DNA of 9,881 bases from a virus (lineage: Duplodnaviria; Heunggongvirae; Uroviricota; Caudoviricetes): IMG/VR virus record IMGVR_UViG_2675903425_000022. One strand, 5' to 3'. Shown here piece after piece: positions 3,335 to 7,195 of this stretch (positions are counted from its first letter, which is position 1; each line of letters begins with the position of its first letter). The position numbers were made by a program, and so were the translations under genes. Under the pieces are notes generated by a model. It was given only the letters and a program-made list of their open reading frames with translations. It ran no database searches and had not been told where the DNA came from.

Positions 3335-3825
3335 TTAATGCACAGCCAGAGTGTTTCCTGCCGGGCCACCACGATTCATCTGATCGAACAGAACGATCGC
3401 TGATGCAACGAAATCATCAATATCTTTCACCAGCCGTTCCTTCGTCTCTACCAACTCCCGAAAATAAGCGGAACTGTGGCTGCGCATTCGGGCCACCAGC
3501 GGAGGCGGCATCGCTTTTTCGATCGCTGGTAACAACGCCTGAATTTTTTTAACCGCATCAGGAGTGTCTTTCTCCACCCAGCGGAAAATTTTCTGAGTAT
3601 TGCGAGCCATGGCTTCCGGATGGCTGTCGTCATACAGTTCCGGGAACGTCATTCCCAGCTCGAAATACGCTTNNNNNNNNNNNNNNNNNNNNNNNNNNNN
3701 NNNNNNNNNNNNNNNNNNNNNNGCTCGAAATACGCTTTGGTAATTTTCGCAGCCGGTACTTTTTCGCCGTCCGGATGCGCCCAGGCATTCATCGCCATGC
3801 GGATGTGTTCATGCTTGATTTTCAT
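3335..3825 (-). CDS. ydaT: YdaT-like (CII-analogous) regulatory protein; ORF interrupted by a 50-N gap
   Basis: ATG at 3825 (top CAT 3823-3825) with GGAG 7 nt upstream. N-terminus is MKIKHEHIRMAMNAWAHPDGEKVPAAKITKAYFE up to the gap, and the translation resumes after it as LGMTFPELYDDSHPEAM...GNTLAVH. Removing the gap and one copy of the duplicated 15-mer gives a continuous 426-nt ORF (141 aa), the size recalled for YdaT. Position after the Cro-like gene fits. Confidence 0.7.
3673..3722. other. Run of 50 N (scaffold gap), flanked by identical 15-mers
   Basis: gctcgaaatacgctt occurs at 3658-3672 and again at 3723-3737, immediately on either side of the N run. Confidence 0.95.
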
Positions 3826-4618: not shown

Positions 4619-4810
4619 ATGGGTACAGCCCTTTCTCCGATAGTTTCAGAATTCGAAACTACCGAACAAGAAAACAGTTACAACGAATGGTTGCGCACTA
4701 AAGTAACGTCAAGCCTTGCAGACACTCGCCCCGCAATTCCACATGACGAGGTAATGGCTGAAATGGAAAATCTTATTGCTCAAATTGCTGTAACTAACAA
4801 GAGCGAGTAA
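4619..4810 (+). CDS. paaA2: Small antitoxin of the ParE module (PaaA2-like)
   Basis: 63-aa acidic ORF (MGTALSPIVSEFETTEQENSYNEWLRTKV...). GAGGA 8 nt upstream of the ATG; its stop overlaps the toxin start (TAATG). Size and position match PaaA2 as recalled. Confidence 0.7.
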   Translation: MGTALSPIVSEFETTEQENSYNEWLRTKVTSSLADTRPAIPHDEVMAEMENLIAQIAVTNKSE

Positions 4811-5097
4811 TGTTACCCATTTTATGGCTACCGTCTGCTCGCGATGATTTGCGCCAGATCATAACTTACATCGCCAAGGAGAACCCACCGGCAGCACGTA
4901 GACTAAAAATACGCATTGAAACATCGGTATTACCTCTATCTGAGCATCCGTACTTATATCCACCAAGCGAACGGGTTTCTGGATTGAGAGAGATCGTGAC
5001 CCACCCTAACTACATAATCCTGTACAGAGTAGCTGCTTCAAGCATTGAGATTGTAAGCGTGACACATTCTCGGCGACAATTTCCCTTCTCTATCTGA
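4810..5097 (+). CDS. parE2: ParE/RelE-family toxin (ParE2-like)
   Basis: 95-aa ORF translationally coupled to the antitoxin. Sequence ...RQIITYIAKENPPAARRLKIRIETSVLPLSEHPYLYPPSERVSGLREIVTHPNYIILYRV... is typical of ParE/RelE-fold toxins. Confidence 0.8.
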   Translation: MLPILWLPSARDDLRQIITYIAKENPPAARRLKIRIETSVLPLSEHPYLYPPSERVSGLREIVTHPNYIILYRVAASSIEIVSVTHSRRQFPFSI

Positions 5098-5374: not shown

Positions 5375-5530
5375 ATGGATACTATCGATCTTGGCAACAA
5401 CGAATCTCTGGTGTACGGCGTGTTTCCCAACCAGGACGGTACATTCACCGCGATGACGTATACCAAAAGCAAAACGTTTAAAACCGAAAATGGTGCCCGT
5501 CGCTGGCTGGAAAGAAACTCAGGTGAGTGA
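5375..5530 (+). CDS. YdfA/YdaF-like small protein (51 aa, DUF1391-type)
   Basis: ATG at 5375 with GAGG 7 nt upstream; MDTIDLGNNESLVYGVFPNQDGTFTAMTYTKSKTFKTENGARRWLERNSGE. It is the first gene after the second operator, as ydfA is in the Qin dicB operon (recalled). Confidence 0.7.
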   Translation: MDTIDLGNNESLVYGVFPNQDGTFTAMTYTKSKTFKTENGARRWLERNSGE

Positions 5531-5531
5531 T

Positions 5532-5660
5532 ATGGATTTCGACACAATCATGGAAAAGGCTTACGAAGAATACTTCGAAGGCCTTGCCGAAGGCGAGGAA
5601 GCTCTCAGCTTCAGTGAGTTTAAACAGGCGCTTTCCAGTTCGGCAAAATCTAACGACTAA
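5532..5660 (+). CDS. YdfB-like small protein (42 aa); absent from the supplied ORF track because of its size
   Basis: ATG at 5532 lies 1 nt after the upstream stop, with AGGTGAG upstream. Translation MDFDTIMEKAYEEYFEGLAEGEEALSFSEFKQALSSSAKSND ends at TAA 5658-5660. Confidence 0.6.
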   Translation: MDFDTIMEKAYEEYFEGLAEGEEALSFSEFKQALSSSAKSND

Positions 5661-5671
5661 CGGAGTTAAAG

Positions 5672-6210
5672 ATGGAATTTAAAGATTTACTAAAAGAAAT
5701 CCAGGAAATTGCAGCACATGCACTTCACCAACGTCTGAACGAAGTTGAATTAGAATCTGCAACGAAGAAATACATTGATAATATGGCTCGTAATGTGCGC
5801 GATGCGTTTACCGGATTGTACTCTGTTTCGGTAACAAACAACCAGAATACTGAAGAAACTGCAAAGCGGATTGCCTCGGTGATGGGTTTTCATGTCGAGG
5901 AAAAGTATTCAAAAAAAGAATTCTGGAAAACTACAAAAAAATTGCAGAGCGAGAACTGTCATCTCCTGCGGCAATCGCTTCTTTCTATGAGGAAAGTTAT
6001 TCAGATGACACAGGATTACCGGAACTGCTCTCATTACTTGAAAAATTCGGAATTATCATGAAAGGGACTGCGTCGGCGGATTTCACATACTCAATGATGG
6101 CTGCTGATGGAGAGCCTTTTCCTCCCGAACTTAAAATAACCCCCGGCAATCATCCGATGGTAACAATAAGAGCAATAGAGAATTACTGGTTTAATCCAGT
6201 TCAACAATAG
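5672..6210 (+). pseudogene. ydfC-position gene split by a -1 frameshift at A7 runs (apparent pseudogene, sequencing error, or programmed slip)
   Basis: Frame-2 ORF 5672-6061 (GGAG 6 nt upstream) reads naturally to ...EEKYSKKEF, then becomes Cys/His-rich and low-complexity. The -1 frame is open from 5854 to TAG 6208-6210 and reads naturally (IAERELSSPAAIASFYEESYSDDTGLPELLSLLEKFGIIMKGTASADF...NYWFNPVQQ). Two A7 runs (5911-5917, 5935-5941) sit at the transition. Confidence 0.5.
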
Positions 6211-6247: not shown

Positions 6248-6433
6248 TTAATCTCGGGCGGCGTTTAACTCTTTATTCAGTAAATCAGACTGATACTGAT
6301 TTGGCTTTGTAATGATACTGTCAAGTTTTGATATATGAAATTCAACATGTTCTGGACAGTTAAAAATGTAATAACCGCCCTTCTCTAAAAAGCCAGAAAG
6401 AGCGTTACAGGCAGGGCATGGTTTGTTTGGCAT
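6248..6433 (-). CDS. Small zinc-ribbon protein (61 aa), opposite in orientation to the surrounding operon
   Basis: ATG at 6433 (top CAT 6431-6433) with GGAGGA 5 nt upstream. Translation MPNKPCPACNALSGFLEKGGYYIFNCPEHVEFHISKLDSIITKPNQYQSDLLNKELNAARD has CPAC...x16...CPEH, a zinc-ribbon-like pattern. Confidence 0.55.
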   Translation of the reverse strand: MPNKPCPACNALSGFLEKGGYYIFNCPEHVEFHISKLDSIITKPNQYQSDLLNKELNAARD

Positions 6434-6768
6434 TTTATCCTCCATTAAGGGCTGAATTAAAAATGGAGACCAACACGCTGCTACGTGTGGTCGTGCGCCG
6501 GACACAGATAAGAATCCGGCACTGACAGTTTACTGAAAGGATATATCCCTGAAAAGTCAGGGCATAACACGAAAGTGCACGGCGAAGTCCTTCTCCCTTA
6601 GAGCCGTCGTTAAATTTAATTCGACCGTGCGCTTCCGGTTGTGGCAATCCGCGAAATGGCGCGGCGGTAAGTATGGCGGGGTTATTCTTTCCCCGTTGAG
6701 GACACCGGGTTGTCAGGTTGACCATACGCTTAAGTGACAACCCCGCTGCAACGCCCTCTGTTATCAAT

Positions 6769-6821
6769 ATTCTGGTGACATTTGGCGGTATCAGTTTTAC
6801 TCCGTAACTGCTCTGCCGCCC
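6769..6821 (+). ncRNA. dicF: DicF small RNA homolog (53 nt)
   Basis: ATTCTGGTGACATTTGGCGGTATCAGTTTTACTCCGTAACTGCTCTGCCGCCC differs at 3 of 53 positions from the K-12 DicF sequence as I recall it (TTTCTGGTGACGTTTGGCGGTATCAGTTTTACTCCGTGACTGCTCTGCCGCCC). It is followed by TTTTTT and located just upstream of dicB, as in Qin. Confidence 0.8.
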
Positions 6822-7006: not shown

Positions 7007-7195
7007 ATGGAAAAGTTATCATGTAATGCCAGCACGTCTGAACTTCGTTTCGAAATTGGCGTTATCACTGGAGACAAAACATTTATTGAAGACGCCATTA
7101 AGCAGAGAAAACTCGAGCAGGACCTGTTAAATGAAGTATGCATTCCTTCAATGCTGGCTCGTCTGGACCTGCTGCAAAAAGGATATAAACAATGA
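7007..7195 (+). CDS. dicB: DicB-like cell-division inhibitor (62 aa)
   Basis: MEKLSCNASTSELRFEIGVITGDKTFIEDAIKQRKLEQDLLNEVCIPSMLARLDLLQKGYKQ aligns along its length with K-12 DicB as recalled (...FEIGVTISNPVFTEDAINKRKQERELLNKICIVSMLARLRL...). GAGGA 7 nt upstream of the ATG; directly downstream of dicF. Confidence 0.85.
   Translation: MEKLSCNASTSELRFEIGVITGDKTFIEDAIKQRKLEQDLLNEVCIPSMLARLDLLQKGYKQ

Follow-up and report, generated by a model that had tools for sequence, protein, structure and literature searches.

An orphan gene in the third position of a dicBF operon

The window, by which we mean the whole stretch of 9,881 nucleotides analysed here (IMG/VR record IMGVR_UViG_2675903425_000022), shares 99.9% identity with a lambdoid prophage that adjoins yccA in the E. 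coli O157:H7 strain examined, and is matched by about 380 complete genomes at an identity of at least 99%. Locally, it carries a cro/cI-like regulator pair, a RelB/RelE pair, a ydfA-like gene, ydfB, the gene studied here (5672-6210), DicF, dicB, a DUF1482 gene and an exonuclease gene, in that order. The gene, an orphan among the accessory genes of a lambdoid prophage, is third in the dicBF early operon (ydfA-ydfB-X-dicF-dicB). Its neighbours in the operon are listed below; the coordinates of the upstream part of the operon (5375 to 5660) are those of locus L001 minus 401.

5375-5530, plus strand: ydfA-like gene (DUF1391)
5532-5660, plus strand: ydfB
6770-6821, plus strand: DicF small RNA, full length (Rfam RF00039, 76.9 bits, E = 4.7e-16)
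7007-7195: dicB

DicF and DicB affect cell division and phage resistance. Some 560 nt separate the gene from DicF downstream, an arrangement like that of the K-12 dicBF operon. The layout of this operon is known from the Qin prophage of K-12, and O157:H7 has been reported to carry several copies of dicF (PMC5069750).

A sequence-only reading of the window had described the gene as standing in the ydfC position. This is correct for the slot, which, like that of the 72-aa ydfC of K-12 Qin, lies between ydfB and dicF and is the third of the dicBF operon, but K-12 YdfC is unrelated in sequence. We rejected homology to K-12 YdfC (b1573) because BLASTP, in a single pairwise comparison, gave E = 0.055 over 33 aa. 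The two prophages thus have no significant sequence similarity at this point and carry different gene cassettes in the same slot.

The stretch 4619-5097 on the plus strand, which separates the cI-like repressor gene from the ydfA-like gene, holds a gene pair encoding a RelB-family antitoxin and a RelE/ParE-family toxin, which is absent at the corresponding place in the K-12 Qin prophage. On the minus strand, at 6248-6505, a convergent small ORF encodes two cysteine pairs (CPACN...NCPEH) and looks like a zinc ribbon; RefSeq places a 61-aa hypothetical protein, WP_001133046.1, at 6248-6433. At loci with an intact allele of the gene (described below), an 80-aa ORF has been called on the other strand, and 20 nt of it overlap with the 3' end of the gene.

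Two reading frames overlap across a pair of A7 runs

Translation in three frames gave a frame-1 ORF of 129 aa that begins with the ATG at 5672, 11 nt past the ydfB stop, and ends at the TGA at 6059-6061. The -1 frame (the phase of 5674) contains no stop between 5851-5853, where the last upstream one lies, and the TAG at 6208-6210; it is thus open from 5854, and the two frames overlap from there to 6058. Two runs of seven A lie inside this overlap. Both begin at codon position 3 of frame 1 (TC[A] AAA AAA and AC[A] AAA AAA), so that A_AAA_AAA at 5911-5917 and at 5935-5941 has the form of an X_XXY_YYZ heptamer in the 0 frame. The parts of the gene are as follows.

5672-6061, plus strand: truncated ORF of 129 aa, with 90 authentic N-terminal residues followed by an out-of-frame tail of 39 residues
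5672-5941, plus strand: authentic N-terminal coding part, residues 1-90, carrying a conserved helical module
5911-5917, plus strand: first A7 run (TCA AAA AAA GAA, S-K-K-E), identical and in frame in all intact homologs
5935-5941, plus strand: second A7 run, site of a one-base deletion; A8 in the close intact alleles (ACA AAA AAA ATT, T-K-K-I)
5942-6210, plus strand: C-terminal remnant in the -1 frame (IAERELSS...NPVQQ), 89 codons and a stop
6058-6210, plus strand: ATG-initiated ORF of 50 aa within the C-terminal remnant, treated by some gene callers as a separate protein (P0121)

In RefSeq the 129-aa product is the hypothetical protein WP_000394511.1, and the NCBI annotation sets no pseudogene flag. 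P0121 is a fragment of the C-terminal half. Runs of seven A are not enriched in the window, with 7 observed on both strands against 6.7 expected from shuffled sequences; the runs themselves are therefore unremarkable, and the signal lies in the frame transition and in the homologs.

The frame transition had been noticed from the letters of the window, as a switch after KKEF from a natural upstream frame into a Cys/His-rich tail. The tail of frame 1 (which contains the peptide LQSENCHLLR) is indeed out of frame, but it is not rich in these residues, with 2 Cys and 2 His among the 39 that follow KK. The -1 frame, which contains the peptide ELSSPAAIASFYEESYSDDTGLPELLSLLEK, had been taken to read naturally to the stop at 6208-6210. 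We agree with this reading, since the frame is open from 5854 and the homologs show both halves to be genuine coding sequence.

Intact relatives place the lesion at the second run

We searched for homologs with a query in which the two frames were joined at the second run, and found that relatives of the gene encode single, uninterrupted proteins. The closest of these are P0001 (179 aa, 94% identical), P0002 (179 aa, 84%) and P0003 (180 aa, 80%). A further intact branch consists of proteins of 177-186 aa with 63-70% identity (P0004-P0009, L002 and L003), and in two of its members, the 186-aa homologs L002 and L003, the gene is a single ORF with approximately 80% nucleotide identity to that of the window. 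The comparison with homologs that had been proposed as a check on the frame transition thus recovered the intact single ORF, at a length of 177-186 aa throughout P0001-P0009, L002 and L003. The 179-180-aa proteins cross the junction as ...EEKYSKKEFWKT[T/A]KKIAERE..., and the 177-186-aa branch crosses it as ...EFWK[M/I]AKRIAER.... Because both close and distant relatives have one continuous ORF, this is the ancestral state of the gene. The fused product had been estimated at about 175 aa; its length is 179 aa instead.

The DNA of these relatives shows where the frame was lost. Close intact alleles encoding 179 aa have eight A at the second run, and their sequence ACTACAAAAAAAATTGC is translated as WKTTKKIAER. 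In a DNA alignment, the intact 179-aa allele reads ACT[A/G]C-AAAAAAAA-TTGC, and the window differs from it by having A7 at this run, with no other indel. A8 is carried by L004-L008, L018 and L021. The 186-aa branch has GCC AAA CGC ATC at the same position and no run there, and conservation within the family thus does not extend to the second run. No intact homolog, those of the 186-aa branch included, departs from the first run (TCA AAA AAA GAA TTC) or reads it out of frame, and this run is therefore not the lesion. The earlier suggestion that the shift falls at the paired runs was right about the A_AAA_AAA register, which both runs have, but the second run alone is the site of the lesion. A genuine truncating or pseudogenising indel, one of the explanations offered at the time, is supported by the comparison of A8 in the close intact alleles with A7 in the window. 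From the comparison of alleles, A8 to A7 is probably the direction of the change.

The truncated protein retains a conserved N-terminal module

The N-terminal part of the protein is a conserved helical module (MEFKDLP..IQEIAA...NMARNVRDAFTGLY) that is common to many prophage proteins of 50-212 aa. Two significant profile matches were phrog_1363 (E = 2.4e-37, residues 1-92) and phrog_2151 (E = 3.8e-29, residues 1-83). Five PHROG families of unknown function (1363, 2151, 9419, 6937 and 33007), with profiles of 64-139 positions, match only a segment that begins at residue 1 and ends between residues 54 and 92. In an exhaustive search of 1.84 billion representatives, approximately 30 clusters of proteins of 50-210 aa matched the N terminus only, and the C-terminal half had no relative outside its own cluster except the fragment P0121. 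Proteins of 212 aa designated 'Ybl81' have the same N-terminal module and then diverge. Profile searches of Pfam, NCBIfam, PADLOC and the PDB returned nothing significant. An AlphaFold2 model built on an alignment of 15 sequences had a mean pLDDT of 50, with residues 1-70 predicted to be helical at about 75 and the C-terminal half below 45. The truncated 129-aa product keeps the whole of the conserved module.

Residue 7 of the window allele (position 5691) is Leu (KDL-L-KE), in contrast to the Pro (KDLP) of nearly all homologs; strain SMN197SH3 (L025), which carries the A7 haplotype, has Pro at this residue. The gene is a mosaic. Nucleotides 105-259 (window 5776-5930) are 95-100% identical across all alleles, synonymous sites included, the first 104 nt are only 65-82% identical across alleles, and in the 186-aa branch the identity over the 3' half is about 70%. 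The 3' edge of the conserved core (nucleotides 105-259) lies just before the second A run. This could be a recombination junction of the lambdoid type, or an element embedded at the nucleotide level.

The A7 allele is fixed in a single haplotype

We tested the length of the tract by comparing a 69-nt query carrying A8 with complete E. coli genomes. The query matched 386 complete genomes, all of them at 98.6% identity and none at 99% or above, and each of the 60 matches listed spans 68 of the 69 bases and is therefore A7. When the 539-nt gene was used, 386 records were at least 99% identical. The 32 listed rows at or above this identity cover the full 539 nt without an indel, and the three at 99.8% differ by SNPs. 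Carriers of A7 include O157:H7 (among them EDL933), O103, O121 and other non-O157 strains, sequenced in many laboratories, and the identical haplotype is also found on nine IMG/VR contigs and one metagenome contig. WP_000394511.1 is encoded by O103 RM8385 and by FORC_042 as well, where the neighbouring genes have slightly different protein accessions. The A7 copies are virtually identical and belong to one haplotype, which indicates that they descend from a single mutational event.

Little has changed in the gene since that event. At the DNA level, the C-terminal remnant and the intact 179-aa alleles share 98-99% identity and differ at 4-5 of approximately 270 nt, and with so few differences in the C-terminal half a comparison of dN/dS between the two halves against the intact alleles is uninformative. 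Only one downstream change is specific to the A7 haplotype, a G to T at 6158 on the plus strand. All intact homologs have G at this position, and in the -1 frame the change converts the invariant Arg of GNHP-R-V to Met (R163M), which is compatible with relaxed constraint at this single site. Among the loci compared, the A7 haplotype shows three distinct SNPs, one of them downstream and synonymous in the -1 frame, and the gene varies by at most one SNP per genome. None of the 386 genomes, which belong to several serotypes, has accumulated a second lesion in the downstream frame. The small variation in the gene indicates that there has been too little time for decay to show, so that the open downstream frame is explained by the youth of the lesion and is not evidence of maintenance.

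Leaky slippage and programmed recoding at the runs

If ribosomes or RNA polymerase slip at these runs, the gene could still yield some full-length protein. The product would then be mostly the 129-aa protein with a little of the 179-aa form, made by -1 slippage at either run or by an A added by the polymerase, and the mixture may be tolerated or even useful in spite of the absence of a dedicated signal. We regard this as unlikely. The geometry is favourable: both heptamers are in register, the -1 frame is uninterrupted over the stretch that contains them (5854-6210), and a slip at the second run would restore exactly the ancestral WKTTKKIAER junction, while the first run is also a possible site of -1 slippage because the -1 frame is already open there. 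In E. coli, one-base deletions are suppressed by unprogrammed -1 slippage at about 1% in aggregate (PMC10861913); a trace of full-length protein from the A7 allele, perhaps of about this proportion, is plausible as mere leakiness. RNA polymerase also makes insertions at A/T runs, with a frequency that grows exponentially as the run lengthens (PMC5574713). The downstream frame, intact in all genomes, is also what would be expected if some full-length product were useful. Against this, E. coli heptamers that lack stimulators exceed a background of about 0.055% by no more than 2- to 10-fold (PMC4066793), the folds downstream of the runs contain no stimulatory structure, selection against transcriptional slippage becomes evident in many genomes at about 9 A/T (PMC1088944), and the arrangement has no comparative conservation and no sign that so small a fraction matters.

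A related proposal, to which we attach little weight, is that the A7 allele is maintained as a gene with two products, a stand-alone N-terminal module and a small, possibly condition-dependent fraction of full-length protein. If true, it would explain why the downstream frame is intact across several serotypes of Shiga-toxin E. coli.

Known sites of transcriptional slippage include A9/T9 runs in IS elements, Thermus dnaX and Shigella mxiE, and frameshift mutations in runs are sometimes corrected by slippage of RNA polymerase (PMC1088944). The second run resembles these sites in that it lies exactly where one A added to the mRNA restores the frame, but it is 7 nt long and not 9 or more, below the approximately 9 A/T needed for efficient transcriptional slippage in most of the bacteria studied (PMC1088944), and any rescue is expected to be rare.

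The stronger claim, that the runs are a programmed recoding signal, had also been raised for this locus. It would require a conserved -1 frameshift or transcriptional slippage that holds the short and the long product at a fixed ratio, as happens in dnaX and in the transposases of the IS3 family, and we consider it very improbable. The -1 frameshift of E. coli dnaX uses A_AAA_AAG, preceded by a Shine-Dalgarno-like element and followed by a hairpin. As in dnaX and the IS3/IS911 signals, the window has slippery heptamers of lysine codons in the 0 frame, the -1 frame is real coding sequence, and the short and long products would have a common N terminus; the differences are that the heptamer here is A_AAA_AAA, that stimulators are not detectable and that the layout is not conserved in homologs. 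A stimulatory hairpin 5-9 nt past the heptamers had been named as a thing to look for. We compared the RNA fold of 5925-6020 with dinucleotide shuffles and obtained z = 0.10, and three other downstream spans gave z = -0.24, -0.32 and -0.80, so that no structure downstream of either heptamer was better than in shuffled sequence when folded without pseudoknots. A weak, imperfect hairpin can be drawn 5-6 nt past the second heptamer (-10.6 kcal/mol), but its z is -0.24 and it is equally present in the intact A8 alleles. Inspection of the upstream sequence revealed no Shine-Dalgarno-like or AGGAGG-like motif. The two-frame layout, and indeed any ORF disrupted at the run, is absent from all homologs outside the single A7 haplotype; these have a single ORF, and the 186-aa branch lacks the second run. 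Finally, the near-identical A7 copies point to a single mutational event, and the run falls short of the 9 nt that known bacterial sites of transcriptional slippage have (PMC1088944).

Phase variation and sequencing error

A tract of A within a coding sequence could also serve as a contingency repeat that toggles the C-terminal domain through reversible replication slippage. The locus has in common with phase-variable contingency loci a coding homopolymer whose length decides whether the frame continues, and A8, A7 and 'A6' states all occur in public sequences. It differs from them in that the tract is short and its length constant among the 386 genomes: no length variant was found among these complete genomes, all of which matched the A8 query at 98.6% (the 60 listed being A7). 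A8 is seen solely on other haplotypes, which differ at 19-44 of 249 upstream positions. The apparent polymorphism comes from two assemblies that are full of homopolymer errors. L009 (GCA_008122345.1), the source of the 'A6' state, lacks a single homopolymer base at 12 places in 6.3 kb when compared with the window, and we therefore rejected L009 and its protein P0011 as instances of tract variability. L019, which has A7 on another haplotype, shows 3 homopolymer indels within 100 nt when compared with its twin contig L018 from the same genome (IMG 648276671), and it was rejected as an independent event for this reason. Phase variation, which the sequence-only reading had listed as one form of a genuine indel, accordingly retains almost no probability.

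That the missing A is a homopolymer error of sequencing or assembly in this draft has as little, since, even though the draft contains a 50-N gap and homopolymer errors are common (as in L009 and L019), the gene is 100% identical in hundreds of finished genomes including EDL933 and the same A7 occurs in independently sequenced O157:H7, O103 and O121 strains, which refutes an error for the allele as such. The whole window is nearly identical to O157:H7 prophages and shows none of the homopolymer errors of L009 and L019, and a deviation from A7 in this particular isolate is very unlikely.

The gap, which had been mentioned in support of an error, does exist, as 50 N at 3673-3722. It lies in the region of the YdaT-family gene of the reference prophage, and the window comes from a draft assembly. 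Homopolymer miscalls in the L009 and L019/L018 assemblies have given rise to spurious protein clusters in databases, an example being the 105-aa P0011.

An inherited deletion that truncates an accessory gene

Together, these comparisons make it very probable that an inherited and fixed deletion from A8 to A7 truncates an orphan gene of the dicBF operon, and that the runs do not constitute a recoding signal. The ancestor of the gene would have encoded a single protein of 179 aa. In the prophage lineage of O157:H7 and other Shiga-toxin E. coli, replication slippage, which we infer to be the mechanism of the deletion, would have dropped one A from the A8 tract that is now the run at 5935-5941. 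Ribosomes would then read 90 authentic and 39 out-of-frame residues and stop at 6059-6061, and the 89-codon C-terminal half would remain untranslated. The outcome would be the loss of a domain, or partial pseudogenisation. Since the N-terminal module is found by itself in many related prophage proteins, the truncated module may still work, and the 129-aa protein may have retained the function of that module.

Truncations and pseudogenes that arise from indels in mononucleotide runs are common in decaying and cryptic prophages, and in bacterial genomes generally. The change described here is of this ordinary kind. It has in common with homopolymer-indel pseudogenes the loss of one A from A8, intact collinear orthologs, a clonal lesion and a location in a largely defective lambdoid prophage, and it differs from them in nothing essential; the cut falls after an N-terminal module of a type that stands alone, so that the result is perhaps domain loss and not complete inactivation.

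For annotation, the 129-aa protein and the 50-aa fragment are better described as parts of one frameshifted gene of 179 aa. The locus and its database relatives also provide a local example of a real homopolymer mutation set against homopolymer sequencing errors, and with the natural pair of A8 and A7 alleles one could quantify how far E. coli suppresses frameshifts without a program. A phenotype of the truncation, if there is one, would be of interest mainly to prophage biologists.
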